DNA of 64,000 nucleotides from Patescibacteria group bacterium (GTDB taxonomy: Bacteria; Patescibacteriota; Minisyncoccia; Phycocordibacterales; Phycocordibacteraceae): positions 69,759-133,758 of the forward strand of contig JAIETW010000002.1 in the NCBI GenBank assembly GCA_019744845.1. Reading direction: 5' to 3'. Position 1 is the stretch's first letter. Each line of letters opens with the position of its first letter. Made by a program: the position numbers and the translations under genes. A model generated the notes under the pieces. The model did not search any database. It saw only the letters and a list, made by a program, of their open reading frames with translations, and was not told the DNA's origin. Positions 50,615 through 57,072 of this stretch are shown one piece after another.

Positions 50615-51514
50615 ATGGCCAATCGGCATCTCGCGCGTTCTCTTGTCCTTCAGTCCCTCTTTGAGTGGGATACGGCAGGTGTGCCTGTAGCGGAGGTGAA
50701 GAACATCCTTGCGCGTAACACCCGTGAGTTTGGAGGGGATGATACTGAAGGGCCATTTATGGAATCTCTCCTTGAAGGCGTGCTCGCAAAGCACGACGAT
50801 CTAGATTTGATTATTCAGAAGGCGGCACCCGACTGGCCGTTGAATCGCATTGCACCGATTGACCGAAACATTCTTCGGTTGGGACTCTATGAGCTTTTGT
50901 TTGCGGACCGTGACCAGGTACCACCGAAGGTGGCAATCAACGAAGCAATTGAGCTTGCAAAGATCTTTGGCGGGGAATCGTCAGGACGTTTTATTAACGG
51001 CGTGCTCGGTGCCGTGTACAAGGAGATGGGTGAGCCAGGAAAGGAAGATGGCGCTAAGAAGAAGGAGCGGATAGATCCGCGCACGCTTCCGGTGGAAGAA
51101 CTTGCAGGTGCGATCGTGTACGCGCCACACGAGGGTCAGTGCTACGTGGCACTGGTGCATGACGTCTTTGGACGCTGGACTCTGTCTAAGGGGCACATCA
51201 ATGAAGAAGAGACTCCGCAGCAGGGTGTGATTCGTGTGATTCAGGAGGAGCTTGGACTCACCGGTACGGTAGAAGAAGTGGTGGGAGAGAACGAATACAT
51301 CGCCTCACACCCTGAGAAAGGGAAGGTCCGTAAGCACGTGTACTTCTTTTTGGTAAAGACCGAGTTCTCAAAACTCTCTTTGAAGCAGAGTGGAGGCCTT
51401 GATGATGCCCGCTGGTTCCGGCTTGCGGATATTCGGGCCCTTAACTTCTACGACGACATGCTCCCAATCGTCACCTCGGCCGTCCAAAAGCTCCTTGATA
51501 AGGCTTTGAAGTAG
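50615..51514 (+). CDS. nusB: NusB fused to a C-terminal Nudix-fold domain
   Basis: RHLAR..LQSLFE, DRNILRLG, VAINEAIELAK, FINGVLG; WTLSKG...EELGL. Confidence 0.9.
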   Translation: MANRHLARSLVLQSLFEWDTAGVPVAEVKNILARNTREFGGDDTEGPFMESLLEGVLAKHDDLDLIIQKAAPDWPLNRIAPIDRNILRLGLYELLFADRDQVPPKVAINEAIELAKIFGGESSGRFINGVLGAVYKEMGEPGKEDGAKKKERIDPRTLPVEELAGAIVYAPHEGQCYVALVHDVFGRWTLSKGHINEEETPQQGVIRVIQEELGLTGTVEEVVGENEYIASHPEKGKVRKHVYFFLVKTEFSKLSLKQSGGLDDARWFRLADIRALNFYDDMLPIVTSAVQKLLDKALK

Positions 51515-51535: not shown

Positions 51536-52219
51536 ATGGAGTTTACTGACGCCGCAGAGAAGCTAGGGCTTCCGTTTCGTGATCTCGCGCTTCTAGAGGA
51601 GGCGCTCACGCACCGTTCCTATCTGAATGAGAATAGAAGCTCCAAGGCACACAATGAGCGCCTTGAGTTTCTTGGGGATGCAGTGCTTGAGCTTGCGACG
51701 ACACGCTTTCTTTTTGATAAGTTTCCAAAGAAACCAGAAGGGGAATTGACCGCGTATCGTGCCGCACTCGTGAATACGTATTCCATTGCTGCCGTGGCGC
51801 AGGAGCTTGGGGTAAACGACATGCTCCTTCTTTCAAAGGGAGAGAAACGGGATACGGGACGTGCGCGTCAGATCATTCTTGCGAACGCGTTTGAAGCAAT
51901 TGTGGGTGCGGTCTATCTTGACCAGGGGTATGACGCGGCAGAAGTATTTCTTGCGAAGCATCTCTATCCAAAACTAGAGAGTGTGCTTGAAGAGCGAAGC
52001 TATCAGGATGCAAAGAGTCGTTTCCAAGAACTCGCCCAGGAACATGATGGGGTGACGCCGAAGTACAAGACACTAGAGGAGACGGGACCTGACCACGACC
52101 GTCAGTTCACGGTCGGTGTATTTATAGGAGATGAGGAGATTGCGCAGGGAGAAGGGAAGAGCAAGCAGGAGGCAGAGCAGGATGCAGCCAAGAAGGGGTT
52201 AGAGAAGAAGAAGTGGTAG
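51536..52219 (+). CDS. rnc: Ribonuclease III
   Basis: HNERLEFLGDAVL, dsRBD. Confidence 0.96.
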   Translation: MEFTDAAEKLGLPFRDLALLEEALTHRSYLNENRSSKAHNERLEFLGDAVLELATTRFLFDKFPKKPEGELTAYRAALVNTYSIAAVAQELGVNDMLLLSKGEKRDTGRARQIILANAFEAIVGAVYLDQGYDAAEVFLAKHLYPKLESVLEERSYQDAKSRFQELAQEHDGVTPKYKTLEETGPDHDRQFTVGVFIGDEEIAQGEGKSKQEAEQDAAKKGLEKKKW

Positions 52220-52245
52220 GTTCGAGTCCTGGACAGCCAGCACGT
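52219..52245 (+). repeat. Repeat copy R1 / tRNA-Gln-like 3' fragment
   Basis: GGTTCGAGTCCTGGACAGCCAGCACGT. Confidence 0.7.
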
Positions 52246-52259
52246 GATAGCATTACTTC

Positions 52260-52754
52260 ATGAGTGAGCCGACGTTCCCAACACCCAAGCAGCCCGTGCC
52301 TACCGAAGTACCAGAAGAGGCGACCTCACGCGTTTTGCAAGACGTCTTCACTAGTTACTTATTTGATCTAAACGACGCAGGTGGGTCTAGTTCAACCGCT
52401 ACAAGCGCGATTTTCTATCGCTCAAAACTTCCTAGAGTGCTGGCAAGACAGATGGGAGCGATGTCAGGGTTACGCGCCGCCCTCCATGATCCCAGAGTAT
52501 CCAGGGCGAAAGCAGACTCTCTTCCCCCCGCCTACTTCGACAATCTTGATCAGATTATATTGTTCTTTACGCAAGCAGCCCATGACGAAGGTCTGCAAGA
52601 CAAGCTTTGGGCAAAAATGTGCGCAATTTGTGAACTTCCTCCAGAAACAAAGGAAATCCAGTTTAGTCAGGTTTTTGACACACTTAGAGCCAAGGGCTAC
52701 GGGCAATTAAAGATAGATAAGCGTGATGGCAGCAATTCATCTGAGGAGACATAG
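52260..52754 (+). CDS. Hypothetical protein (cassette 1)
   Basis: ORF bounded by R1 and R2; TAGCAT 6 nt before the ATG. Confidence 0.6.
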   Translation: MSEPTFPTPKQPVPTEVPEEATSRVLQDVFTSYLFDLNDAGGSSSTATSAIFYRSKLPRVLARQMGAMSGLRAALHDPRVSRAKADSLPPAYFDNLDQIILFFTQAAHDEGLQDKLWAKMCAICELPPETKEIQFSQVFDTLRAKGYGQLKIDKRDGSNSSEET

Positions 52755-52784
52755 GGTTCCAACATCGTCCAAGACAGCCAGCAC
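52755..52784 (+). repeat. Repeat copy R2
   Basis: GGTTCCAACATCGTCCAAGACAGCCAGCAC. Confidence 0.9.
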
Positions 52785-52799
52785 TGATATACTCGTTTT

Positions 52800-53357
52800 A
52801 TGAAAGTAATACTTTTTGACTTCTTTGGAGTGTTCTCCACCCCTGTATATAAAAAAGTAATAGATACATACATCCCTGAGTCAGAACGAGAGACATGGAT
52901 GAAGAAGCTTGATGTGCTTGATACTGGTGAACTTTCGGAAGAAGATTTGCGCAAGCAACTTGCCGAAAGAGCCGGAGTGGAAGAAGGTGAAATACGCGCA
53001 GCCGTTGATGGCGCACCAGTGCGAAATACTGAGCTCTTTAACTATGTTGAAGAGAATCTAAAAGGGAAGTATGTAGTCGGCTTGCTGACCAATATTCCAC
53101 GTTCTCTATTTGAAAGAATAGCCGCAGATAAGGCGTCGCTTTTTGATCCGCTCCTTATTTCATCTGACTTAAAACTTATTAAACCAAGTAGAGAAATATT
53201 TGAAGAAGCAATTCGTAGATGTGGTGTCCTGCCAGAAGAAATACTGTTCATAGACGACGGAGAAAAGAATATTGCTGCTGCCAAAGCGGTTGGACTAAAT
53301 GGCTTTGTCTATACGGACTTTCCCTCGTTTTTAGAAAACATAGCTCCTTATTTGTAG
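52800..53357 (+). CDS. HAD-superfamily phosphatase (cassette 2)
   Basis: FDFFGV, LLTN, KP, FIDD...N. Confidence 0.88.
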   Translation: MKVILFDFFGVFSTPVYKKVIDTYIPESERETWMKKLDVLDTGELSEEDLRKQLAERAGVEEGEIRAAVDGAPVRNTELFNYVEENLKGKYVVGLLTNIPRSLFERIAADKASLFDPLLISSDLKLIKPSREIFEEAIRRCGVLPEEILFIDDGEKNIAAAKAVGLNGFVYTDFPSFLENIAPYL

Positions 53358-53358
53358 G

Positions 53359-53393
53359 AAGGTGGTTCCAACATCGTCCAAGACAGCCAGCCA
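53359..53393 (+). repeat. Repeat copy R3
   Basis: AAGGTGGTTCCAACATCGTCCAAGACAGCCAGCCA. Confidence 0.9.
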
Positions 53394-53408
53394 AGCTATA
53401 CTTTTCCC

Positions 53409-53711
53409 ATGCTTGATAGTTTTCTTCTAACTAGACTCAAGAAAACAAATTACCCGCTCTATGTACTATGGCGGGCGATTCTTCATGTCGCTAGCTCCCT
53501 GGTTCTTCTCTTCGTTTCGCACCTTGTGGCGTTAGAGTACGGGTATAATGCGCCCGCGTACGTATTTGCCGCATTGCTTATTTTCATAACCTACCTAGAG
53601 TTTTATCTGCATCCAAAGCTCTATCACCAAAAGCTCTCAAAAGGCATCATAGATTGGCTCTCCTGGATCCTACCGTTCATACTGTATTTTCTCTTTCTTG
53701 GAATCCTGTAA
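53409..53711 (+). CDS. Small 3-TM membrane protein (cassette 3)
   Basis: Hydrophobic 100-aa ORF bounded by R3 and R4. Confidence 0.65.
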   Translation: MLDSFLLTRLKKTNYPLYVLWRAILHVASSLVLLFVSHLVALEYGYNAPAYVFAALLIFITYLEFYLHPKLYHQKLSKGIIDWLSWILPFILYFLFLGIL

Positions 53712-53748
53712 AGGTGGTTCCAACATCGTCCAGAGACAGCCAGCACGT
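53711..53748 (+). repeat. Repeat copy R4
   Basis: AAGGTGGTTCCAACATCGTCCAGAGACAGCCAGCACGT. Confidence 0.9.
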
Positions 53749-53751
53749 ATT

Positions 53752-54462
53752 TCAATTCTCTCGCTTTGTGCCAATAAGCACTTTGCGAAGGAGGGGGCTC
53801 ATGAGTCCAACCAGTAAACCAAGCAACAAAAGCCCCACAAAACGTCCCAATATCATAACGGCTTTTCCCGCTTCGGTTGCAGGCTCGGAATACGGCACGT
53901 CTCCAAGAATGATCAGAAGCGACCAGAACATGCCAGACGGTATGTCGTGTGCACTTGATCCAGCACCCTCGAATATATAGAGCAAGGTGCCTAGCAACAA
54001 AAGCGCTATGAGCATAGCGACAAAATAAATTTGAATATTCACGATATAGAGCGAACGTTCTCCGTGATGCTGTTCTATTCTGGCAACCTTTGCGAGCCGT
54101 ATCATCCTTAGGAGGCGAAGAATACGGAGTGCGCGTGTCGTTTTAAGAAACGTAAAGTTCCCAAGCGCAAGGAGTGAAGGAAGAATAGCCAACAAGTCTA
54201 TAATGCCGAAGAAGCTGAAGATGTATCGGAACTTGGCACGTGCGATATAGACACGCGCACCATATTCCGTAAGAAAACATACGACACTTATCCATTCAAT
54301 TGCTTTGAAGATTGCATGATACTCACTCAGTGACGGCACTGTCTCAAGAACAAGGGCAAGAACGGAGGCGATTGTGAGAAACGCCAGAAAGTCGTTAACG
54401 ATGATGAAAAGTCGTGATTGTGGATTTTCAAGTGCGTTGCGAAGTGCGTTCCCAGAGTTCAT
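53752..54462 (-). CDS. Voltage-gated ion channel (Ion_trans) family protein
   Basis: EYGAR, IIDLLAILP, S4 RALRILRLLRMIRLAK, pore-helix region. Confidence 0.85.
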   Translation of the reverse strand: MNSGNALRNALENPQSRLFIIVNDFLAFLTIASVLALVLETVPSLSEYHAIFKAIEWISVVCFLTEYGARVYIARAKFRYIFSFFGIIDLLAILPSLLALGNFTFLKTTRALRILRLLRMIRLAKVARIEQHHGERSLYIVNIQIYFVAMLIALLLLGTLLYIFEGAGSSAHDIPSGMFWSLLIILGDVPYSEPATEAGKAVMILGRFVGLLLLGLLVGLMSPLLRKVLIGTKREN

Positions 54463-54533
54463 ATGGTAGATAAACTATAACACTTGCCGCTATGTGGAGA
54501 GACAGTCTGTAAGTTGGTTGTATACTGTTCTCT

Positions 54534-54851
54534 ATGTCTGAAGATCTAAAACAGTCAGGTGAAGCCCTTCCCAAGGAGCTTCAAAATCTTATTACCACAT
54601 ACGAGGGAGCCTCAGAAGATCGTTGGATTGAATGGTCCAAAGAGTGGGATCTAGAAACCACTCGCCTTATCAGAAATACGGCCGTCGCCGTGCTGCAGCT
54701 TGGGGAAGAGAGCAGAAAAGCAAAACGCAAAGAGGGCATTGACCTTCATAACGATGGATCTCCAGAGTCTGCACTTACCGCTCCTCTGTTCTTTATTTCT
54801 GAAGCCGCATTGAAGCGCATTGAGTCGGGCCTCAACCAAGTCATCACCTAA
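54534..54851 (+). CDS. Hypothetical protein
   Basis: 105-aa ORF with TATACT 7 nt upstream. Confidence 0.55.
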   Translation: MSEDLKQSGEALPKELQNLITTYEGASEDRWIEWSKEWDLETTRLIRNTAVAVLQLGEESRKAKRKEGIDLHNDGSPESALTAPLFFISEAALKRIESGLNQVIT

Positions 54852-54882
54852 GACTGCGTCGGTAGGGTATAATTTTGAGTAA

Positions 54883-57072
54883 ATGTTGAAGCGACTAGAA
54901 ATCGCCGGATTCAAATCATTCGCGAAGAAAACTTCGCTTGATTTCTCGTCGTCGGTAACCGCAATTGTGGGCCCAAACGGTTCTGGTAAATCAAACGTCG
55001 CTGAAGCCTTTCGTTTTGCACTTGGTGAGCAGTCTATGAAAAGCATGCGTGGAAAGCGCAGTGAGGATCTTATCTGGAGCGGGTCTAACACCTCTCCTCG
55101 TTCTAACCGCGCGTCTGTTGCGGTGGTGTTTGATAACCGAAAGAAGATTTTCCCAAAGATGGAGTTTGATGAGGTGTCTATTGAGCGCGCCGTATTCCGC
55201 GATGGTGCGAGCGAATATTCAGTGAACGGATCTAAAGTACGCCTTCGTGATGTGCAGGAACTCCTTGCAAGCGCCAACATTGGTGACACGGGGCACCACA
55301 TCATTTCGCAAGGAGAAGCAGATCGTATTCTTCTCTCTGCACCTCGCGAACGTCGTGCCATGCTTGAGGATGCACTTGGTCTTCGTGTCTTTGAATTTAA
55401 GAAACAAGAGGCAGAGAAGAAGCTTGAGAAGACGGAAGAGAATGTAAAGCAAGTGGAGGCACTTCGTCGGGAGATTCTTCCGCATATTAAATTCCTTTCA
55501 AAGCAGGTGGAGAAGCTGGAGCGTGCAGAAGAACTCATTAAAGAGCTCACCGCTGCCGCGCGTGAATACTTTGCAATAGAAGAGCTCTACATTCGCTCAG
55601 AGAAAGCGACGTCTACCACGCGTCTTAAAGATGCGACAGAGCGTCTTGCAACTGTGTCTGCAGAACTCGCACCACTCCAAGACCGTGCCGCTATGGATTC
55701 TGAGGGAATGAAGCGTGCAGAAGCCGTACGGAATGCTGAGCGTGAGCTTGATCGTGCACTTGGGGAACACGCCACACTGTCTCGTGAGATTGGACGCATA
55801 GAGGGTGCACTTGAAGGAGCACGTAAGCGCGCAGACGCTGCTGCGCAAGAGCCATACGTGAAGGTATCTCGTGAAGACCTGTCTGCATTGAAGAGTGAAG
55901 TAGAGGCACAGACACGCATTGGAGATGGGAGCCCTGAAGCGATTCGTGCTGCCTTCATGGCCATTAAGTCTGCCCTCACAGCGTTCTTTGACCGCTTTGC
56001 AGGAGGAAGTGAGCGAATGGCGGAAGAAGAGCGTGAAGTGTATGCGCTAGAAGAAGAGAGGAAGAATCTCGTGGCGCGTGAAGAAGAACTTGCTGCTGCG
56101 TCTGAGAAAGCTCGCCACGCGCTCGTTCGTGCACGTGAAGAGTCTGCTGCGCACGAGGAGACCGGACGTGAGAATCAGTATCGTGTGCTTGATATGGCAG
56201 AAGCTAAAGCACGGGAGGAAGCAACGGTCGCTCGAGAAGAGGGTCGCCAGCGTGAACTCGCTATGCTTGCAGAAGAGCTTGAGCGTGACCGTGCGGAAGT
56301 CATGGCGCTTGCAGGCACTGCGGCACTTTCATACGCGCCCCTGTCTTCACTTCCAGAGGAAGAACGTCGTGTGCAGGAAGATCGTAAGCGCAGTATGGAG
56401 CGTCTTAAGATTCGCGTAGAAGAAGCGGGAGGAACCGGAGAGGACGTGCGTGCTGAATACAATGACGCGACTGAACGTGAGCAGTTCCTTACCCGTGAGC
56501 TTGAGGATCTTGCGAAGTCTGCCGAAGGACTCCGTGCTCTTATCAGTGATCTTGATGAGGAGCTTGGAAAGACTTTTGCGGAAGGGCTTGCCAAGGTGAA
56601 CGCATCGTTCACTGAATTCTTTGCAATTATGTTCGGAGGAGGAAGTGCACGTTTGATACTTGAAGAACCAGAGGAACCAGATGAGGAGGATGAAGAAGGA
56701 GTAGTACGCGAAGGGAAGCCAGGCATTGAAATTGCAGTGAATCTTCCAAAGAAGCGGGTGCAGGCACTCATGCAGCTTTCTGGAGGAGAGCGTGCCTTGA
56801 CCAGCATCGCGCTTATCTTTGCGATGAGTCAGGTGAATCCGCCCCCATTCCTTATTCTTGATGAAACGGATGCCGCACTTGATGAGGCGAACTCTCGCCG
56901 CTATGGCGACATGATTGAAGGACTGGCGAAGAAATCACAGCTCGTCGTCATTACCCACAATCGTGAGACCATGAGCCGTGCAGGTATACTCTACGGAGTC
57001 ACCATGGGAAATGATGGAATTAGTAAGTTGTTATCCGTTAAATTTGAAGAAGCGATGATGGTCGCTAAATAG
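54883..57072 (+). CDS. smc: SMC-family ATPase, short form
   Basis: GFKSF, GPNGSGKSN, LSGGE, LDETDAALD, ITH. Confidence 0.88.
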   Translation: MLKRLEIAGFKSFAKKTSLDFSSSVTAIVGPNGSGKSNVAEAFRFALGEQSMKSMRGKRSEDLIWSGSNTSPRSNRASVAVVFDNRKKIFPKMEFDEVSIERAVFRDGASEYSVNGSKVRLRDVQELLASANIGDTGHHIISQGEADRILLSAPRERRAMLEDALGLRVFEFKKQEAEKKLEKTEENVKQVEALRREILPHIKFLSKQVEKLERAEELIKELTAAAREYFAIEELYIRSEKATSTTRLKDATERLATVSAELAPLQDRAAMDSEGMKRAEAVRNAERELDRALGEHATLSREIGRIEGALEGARKRADAAAQEPYVKVSREDLSALKSEVEAQTRIGDGSPEAIRAAFMAIKSALTAFFDRFAGGSERMAEEEREVYALEEERKNLVAREEELAAASEKARHALVRAREESAAHEETGRENQYRVLDMAEAKAREEATVAREEGRQRELAMLAEELERDRAEVMALAGTAALSYAPLSSLPEEERRVQEDRKRSMERLKIRVEEAGGTGEDVRAEYNDATEREQFLTRELEDLAKSAEGLRALISDLDEELGKTFAEGLAKVNASFTEFFAIMFGGGSARLILEEPEEPDEEDEEGVVREGKPGIEIAVNLPKKRVQALMQLSGGERALTSIALIFAMSQVNPPPFLILDETDAALDEANSRRYGDMIEGLAKKSQLVVITHNRETMSRAGILYGVTMGNDGISKLLSVKFEEAMMVAK

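Follow-up and report, generated by a model that had tools for sequence, protein, structure and literature searches.

Integrons consist of an anchor and a series of mutually unrelated one-gene cassettes that each end in a repeated site and vary between strains; they use the integrase IntI together with attC, a palindrome that folds. The array described here occupies the rnc–smc interval of a 64-kb window (the whole stretch of DNA analysed, which comes from a metagenome assembly of an ultra-small bacterium of the Patescibacteria group and whose positions serve as coordinates below). It is integron-like in layout, sharing with integrons and with integrase-less attC clusters the anchor, the unrelated one-gene cassettes, the repeated closing site and the variable content; it is not an integron, but a miniaturised form of serine-integrase tandem accretion. 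By our comparison, the closest known systems are the ssrA islands of Dehalococcoides (McMurdie et al. 2011, PMC3146451), in which attL overlaps the gene of the serine integrase DsiB and not every tandem island carries the integration module, and the accretion of cis-mobilizable elements (CIMEs; PMC5704250). The literature searched, which included few subscription papers and no supplements, contained no description of this cassette system in Patescibacteria; what this array adds is an anchor next to a core gene that has no tRNA and serves a sister genome as well, together with strain variants that differ with cassette precision. From sequence comparison, we consider it likely that the array was built by successive integration of small recombinase-less circles at the anchor, with the enzyme supplied in trans.

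The core gene rnc (RNase III; 51536..52219, + strand) abuts with its stop codon the anchor, R1 (52219..52241, +), a junction that is identical in the sister genome L278. On the same strand follow cassette 1 (52248..52754), composed of a -10 box (52248–52253) and a gene for a 164-amino-acid protein of unknown function (52260–52754); site R2 (52755..52782); cassette 2 (52788..53357), with a -10 box (52788–52793) and a gene for a HAD-family hydrolase (52800–53357; Pfam E = 6e-15); site R3 (53364..53391); cassette 3 (53397..53711), with a -10 box (53397–53402) and a gene for a hydrophobic, 100-amino-acid membrane protein that matched no protein family (53409–53711); and site R4 (53716..53744), a variant with a 1-nt insertion that closes cassette 3 and is also present in two of the four sites of L278. 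R1 shares one base, the last, with the rnc stop codon, and R2, R3 and R4 begin 0, 6 and 4 nt past the preceding stop. A first-pass annotation, made from the letters alone, had placed four repeat copies at these positions, each close to an upstream stop codon, between unrelated genes and in a comparatively AT-rich block. All of this holds: every copy starts within 6 nt of a stop, the three genes are unrelated, and the GC content of the block is 0.456 versus 0.519 for rnc and 0.515 for smc. The annotation's view of the copies as one repeat is borne out for R2–R4; R1 belongs to another kind of site. Matches of cassette 1 in the Atlas were all below 0.9 and serve only as leads, and cassette 3 had no relatives among the genome contigs searched and no usable Atlas match.

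The -10 hexamers at 52248, 52788 and 53397 do lie exactly 6 nt upstream of an ATG, as had been noticed, but this spacing is not special: a TAnnnT motif 5–10 nt before the first ATG occurs in 244 of 594 long open reading frames (ORFs) of the genome, versus 5% of random positions. Since the layout is common genome-wide, all that follows from it is that every cassette carries a promoter of its own, probably a leaderless one. The bases immediately after R1 (52241–52253) recur behind the anchor of another genome (L044:3420–3435), so that cassette heads, which are extended -10 promoters, would form lineages.

The two site kinds differ by a defined insertion. R1 is a 23-nt look-alike of the T arm and acceptor of tRNA-Gln that stands without a tRNA, whereas R2–R4 represent a 28-nt site, and R2 equals R1 with 5 nt inserted between the GGTTC motif and GTCC. 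Counted from the AG of CAGC, the TTC-led motif occupies positions 16–24 in R2-type sites and 11–19 in R1 and tRNA-Gln. The same 5-bp shift distinguishes attP from attB in the LI/A118 integrase systems, in which the zinc-domain motif sits at positions 16–24 of the attP half-site but, in attB, lies nearer the crossover by 5 bp (Rutherford et al. 2013, PMC3783163). On this sequence comparison, R2–R4 match the element-side (P) half and R1 and tRNA-Gln the host-side (B) half of a serine integrase site, and the agreement in geometry predicts AG, corresponding to tRNA positions 72–73 and to 52239–52240 in R1, as the crossover. Unlike in LI/A118, only the left halves of the sites are conserved, the P halves stand in tandem, and the head site is apparently re-used, contrary to the strict attP × attB directionality of that system (PMC3783163).

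The sites do not fold (eight folds, z-scores from -1.68 to +1.36), Rfam yielded no match at them, and a hand count found only 5 of 11 positions matching between the arms of the R2-type consensus, so there are no inverted 11-bp arms as in Xer/dif. These properties bear on the idea that a tyrosine recombinase, either a host Xer-like enzyme or an integron integrase, acts on the sites, which we regard as very improbable. The genome does encode one tyrosine recombinase, on another contig, and one relative (L040) has an array beside its tyrosine recombinase gene; however, the enzyme scores 141.9 bits against the integron-integrase model TIGR02249 (cut-off 265) and looks Xer-like, the sites neither fold nor form inverted repeats, and they are tied in both sequence and position to serine recombinases (see below). 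Thus, unlike in integrons, there is neither IntI nor a folding attC, and the linked enzyme is a serine recombinase.

The R2-type site is a recurrent feature of this genome (760 kb, 99% complete, 8 contigs). Its 16-mer pattern occurs 11 times versus 0 in each of 10 shuffles, which excludes chance as the origin of the repeats, and the 11 sites fall into six arrays in which genes are closed by 28-nt sites. One array starts at a real tRNA-Gln(CTG) and five start at a tRNA-free 23-nt R1-type look-alike, located at the stop or promoter side of a gene. The five arrays of the same build outside the window (G000:C1 4743–6262 on the + strand; 86045–87275, 224071–225156, 295769–296579 and 314320–315481 on the - strand) comprise the one headed by tRNA-Gln(CTG) and four at tRNA-free anchors beside other genes. 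Some anchors resemble a P half minus 5 nt, others fragments of tRNA-Gln, and the tRNA-free ones suggest that an array can start from no more than a 23-nt B half. At C1:337044, a sixth and degenerate anchor precedes one gene and a transposase-like ORF; no P site was found there. Decay is strongest at the last site in three of the six arrays. No Y1 transposase, IS110 element or reverse transcriptase was found in this nearly complete genome.

According to the first-pass annotation, the block is a gene-capture array that grew as one gene after another was inserted site-specifically at a site other than attC, implying further repeat copies, variable cassettes between rnc and smc, and empty-site or junction sequences. 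The genome-wide copies, the variable content, the junctions and the linked recombinase family all support this interpretation. In L278, 89% identical over nusB–rnc, an R1-type site lies at the same base after rnc and precedes four non-homologous cassettes, each closed by a P site, followed by a shared 105-amino-acid gene and smc. Strain variants also came from two samples of a single study, runs X5 and X6 (depth 3.5 and 3.1, respectively), whose contigs, at 88% likeness, join 52231 to 53382, so that R1 leads precisely into the end of R3 and cassette 3, and cassettes 1 and 2 are missing. The contigs extend 62 and 93 nt from the joint towards rnc, and the joint falls within 10 shared nt (52232–52241) that include the AG; an overlap of this length is too short for a repeat collapse. 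Joints with a side of <31 nt or of uncertain spacing, which come from other repeat copies, were set aside, leaving two long-sided joints. The X5/X6 contigs are equally compatible with loss of the two cassettes and with their never having been gained. In the tRNA-Gln array, a contig of run X8 omits one 610-nt cassette, the middle one, and nothing else (L266:18725–19336; G000:C1 314324–314935). Finally, a homologue of the HAD cassette stands at another anchor, in L279 (81% amino acid identity, 553 of ~580 nt aligned), behind a degenerate B-type site and before a P-type site; the lower-ranking HAD homologues (L280–L284) had no sites by the patterns used.

The same contigs bear on a possible assembly artefact at the repeats. 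The window derives from a metagenome assembly, and the single contig, at depth 17, that covers the whole stretch probably comes from the source sample and hence is not independent. The repeats, however, are shorter than 31 nt and have unique flanks, X4 contigs cross R3, and L278 carries an equivalent array, which makes an artefact scarcely credible.

Further copies of the site are spread over relatives. An exact 19-mer search of half of the GTDB species set returned 146 loci and, after 20 loci outside the Candidate Phyla Radiation (CPR) had been dropped, 149 unique sites, whose conservation stops just right of CAGC. In 26 of the 74 longer loci (~20 distinct places), the site is preceded by a tRNA-Gln gene in the same orientation. 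At the level of the order, a 15-mer with at most one mismatch matched 36 of 251 genomes, versus 9 for a reversed control, and part of the matching genomes carry sister sites at other tRNAs. The segments between sites (n = 128) have a median period of 510 nt; 101 hold a single ORF, 64 forward and 37 reversed. Clustering of 172 segments gave 170 distinct clusters, with only two homologous pairs, both aligned almost end to end. Sites within long arrays remain nearly identical. Separately, near tRNA-Asp, -Glu, -Tyr, -Asn and -Thr (L199, L200, L202, L204, L205), the leftmost 15 nt of the P half are combined with different 3' ends, suggesting that sister recombinases target other tRNAs, and R1-like 23-mers without a called tRNA are found in Acidobacteria and Anaerolineae (L268, L269, L272, L273, L274). 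Among viral contigs, 34 stretches contained the 19-mer, each of them once and none with the array layout; nearly all represent one GC-rich context that is also present in alphaproteobacterial genomes, and we took them as a chance match.

The orientation of the cassettes speaks against the alternative raised in the first-pass annotation, namely that the repeat is a duplicated promoter or an RNA-processing module. Many sites are indeed followed by a -10 box within 6–10 nt, and R1 resembles a tRNA T arm. However, 37 of the 101 single-ORF cassettes are reversed, with terminator-like hairpins found behind the site in these cases; no plus-strand gene follows R4; the -10 layout is a genome-wide trait; the site encodes the tail of a recombinase (see below); and the cassette junctions of the X5/X6 contigs map inside the site. 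A promoter or processing module is accordingly most improbable. In bringing their own promoters and facing both ways, the cassettes also differ from those of integrons.

The sites are also linked to an enzyme family. Read on the reverse strand, the 28-nt site encodes LLAVWDDVGT, the C-terminal tail of the tRNA-Gln-type large serine recombinases (LSRs), and R2 correspondingly reads VLAVLDDVGT. A native tail of this kind terminates L228 and 5 of 50 LSR proteins; of the other proteins in this set, 24 have tRNA-derived residues at the C-terminus, and 21 show neither ending by the pattern used. Among 13 sites at element boundaries, third codon positions vary more (0.20) than first and second positions (0.09). 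In the complete element L198, a tRNA-Gln gene is followed by an antisense LSR gene whose 3' end runs into the tRNA, by cargo and by an R2-type site at the far end. A search for LSR-family loci returned 30, of which one truncated and one non-CPR locus were left out. In the remaining 28 CPR loci, the LSR 3' end runs antisense into tRNA-Gln in 23, into a tRNA-free R1-like site in 2, and has a P-type tail in 3; an R2/P-type site lies on the same strand 2.5–8.3 kb upstream of the LSR gene in 15, and in 12 of the 16 loci for which a full 10 kb was covered. The 28-nt site forms the distal boundary of these elements. As in LI/A118 (PMC3783163), the LSRs of the relatives' elements, though none in the window, comprise Resolvase, Recombinase and zinc-ribbon domains (Pfam), and all 31 sequences retain the catalytic YxRxS motif. 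Readings of the array as IS91-type, CRISPR-type, Xer/dif or group II intron were dropped once the LSR link had emerged.

In L195/L206, an intact LSR element occupies a tRNA-free R1-like site 6 nt past the stop codon of a gene and heads 11 P sites within 10 kb, suggesting that tRNA-free anchors work as integration targets. LSR elements head arrays in L206, L207 and L212, with none in the window. The LSR genes with a native P-type tail are evidence of joined P'–P sites but not of free circles. Autonomous LSR elements may replicate as circles; an ORF that by eye resembles a rolling-circle replication initiator is located directly upstream of the LSR in L229 (9222–10004). Between tRNA-Gln and the LSR, L214 contains a gene-free unit of ~190 nt (1850–2040) that ends in a P half and whose start matches the sequence right of a P site in L223.

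From the identity and geometry of the sites, their association with the LSR family, the variable content and the junctions within sites, we infer the following course of events. A circle consisting of a promoter, a gene and a P half would recombine with the B half at R1, the strands crossing at the AG in CAGC, and the reaction would be catalysed by a recombinase of the tRNA-Gln LSR family arriving in trans. With only the left half of the site conserved, the product at the head would remain a target; indeed, because the right arms are not conserved, the head site is predicted to stay usable. Newly arriving cassettes would thereby accumulate next to R1, displacing earlier arrivals away from it, and recombination between R1 and an internal P half would excise the head-proximal cassettes.

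Several observations weigh against this scheme. The first-pass annotation had looked to a recombinase encoded elsewhere, and the part of that idea that stands is the serine recombinase family tied to the site in relatives; no tRNA-Gln-type LSR turned up in this genome. The one LSR that it does encode (G000:C1 329504–331075), in an element at an intron-containing tRNA, is 40% identical, falls on a separate branch of a quick tree that carried a long-branch warning, and has a different P arm, of which the element also holds an inverted internal copy (G000:C1 322904 and 327308). LSRs of at least 45% identity occur in only 5 of 251 genomes of the order and in only 3 of the 36 site-bearing ones. The serine integrases studied require two defined arms and obey strict directionality (PMC3783163), whereas conservation in 120 cassette sites ends 2 nt right of CAGC, so that two conserved inverted arms are lacking, and the P' sequence of the element is kept above 0 bits in the right flank of just 1 of the 120. 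The X8 junction is of the P × P type, its 16 shared nt ending 2 nt before the AG unless the strain has the consensus base, and homologous deletion would explain it equally well. Circular junctions, expected from the earlier annotation, were not seen in contigs, the only data type searched. No site follows rnc in any of 29 relatives of the genus, where the rnc–smc gap measures 14–54 nt in 8 and 176–1406 nt in 16 (smc was not reached in 3, and 2 ran into a contig end); hence the interval is variable even without this system.

Part of this evidence fits a rival in which the sites are half-site relics: full-size LSR elements would have integrated successively, each then trimmed by deletion to one gene, and today's variation would reflect homologous or slippage deletion between repeats plus transformation via the rnc and smc flanks, with no recombinase acting on cassettes. 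The missing cognate LSR, the lost P' arm, the P × P junction of X8 and the lack of circles in contigs all agree with it, and trimming is the established route to cis-mobilizable elements (PMC5704250). Yet the same cassette is found end to end at different anchors and array positions, the sites within long arrays are nearly identical, and genes of both orientations are tightly fitted between sites across the 128 segments. Ten shared nucleotides, as at the X5/X6 joint, are moreover very short for RecA-type recombination. We therefore judge such relics unlikely and favour successive integration of recombinase-less circles.

As in the Dehalococcoides ssrA islands (PMC3146451), units stand in tandem at the 3' end of an RNA gene, and a reverse-strand recombinase gene overlaps attL. 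The units here, however, are mostly single genes; the repeated boundary is the P arm of the element rather than a 20-bp copy of the RNA-gene end; the target is tRNA-Gln or its look-alike instead of ssrA; in this genome a tRNA-free anchor next to a core gene heads five of the six arrays; and the six-gene dsiB module is absent at the window array. The likeness to CIMEs, and to the tandem accretion of integrative and mobilizable or conjugative elements (IMEs/ICEs; PMC5704250), lies in the loss of the integrase, the retention of att sites and the stacking at one target, and integrase-less att-bounded units do occur behind an LSR element at the same target in L206, L207 and L212. CIMEs are decayed multi-gene elements, whereas here a large pool of minimal one-gene units is served by several anchors per genome; the window array has no adjacent autonomous element for mobilisation in cis, and its enzyme would either work in trans or have been lost. 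The Ccr system of SCCmec (PMC3146451) likewise combines distantly related serine recombinases with composite islands at one site, but P0002, an LSR of the present family, scores 79–87 bits versus Ccr cut-offs of 700–900 (NCBIfam), and both target and unit size differ.

Beyond R4 the interval is less regular. The ion-channel gene (53752..54462, - strand; Ion_trans E = 6e-15), which the first-pass annotation had abutting R4 in opposite orientation, does converge on R4, but it lies outside the last intact site; it has no intact closing site and is missing from this place in L278, making it part of the variable content. A possible decayed fifth site, right half only (54498..54509, +), matches R4 at 10 of 12 nt, its left half being unrecognisable, and lies directly 5' of the -10 box of the 105-amino-acid gene (54534..54851, +); this weak candidate borders the distal flank of the array, whose gene shares 71% amino acid identity with its L278 counterpart, there preceded by a P-type site. 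The core gene smc (54883..57072, +) closes the interval; its product is short (729 amino acids), with no match to a hinge domain, and upstream of rnc the NusB protein is fused to a NUDIX domain (50615–51514). GGTAGG occurs at both ends (52213–52220 and 54861–54868) of the 2.66-kb rnc–smc insert, and a microhomology origin of the anchor is possible. The 16-nt rnc–smc gap of G308 reads like an empty site.

More broadly, and tentatively, Patescibacteria might run a genome-wide analogue of integrons on serine-integrase chemistry, with one-gene cassettes that require no more than a 27-nt P half, a visiting recombinase that inserts and excises them, portable B-type anchors and a very large shared cassette pool; the anchors would have escaped from the tRNA-Gln gene and settled at core-gene ends, so that each 0.7-Mb genome would have several independent capture platforms. 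The sites point to serine integrases for which a single defined arm per site may suffice and which may re-use the product site; if true, this would depart from the directionality rule and be useful for iterative DNA assembly. The 28-nt site also provides a tag for mining the cassette gene pool, and successive integration at such anchors offers a concrete, testable route by which the streamlined genomes of Patescibacteria could gain and swap accessory genes.

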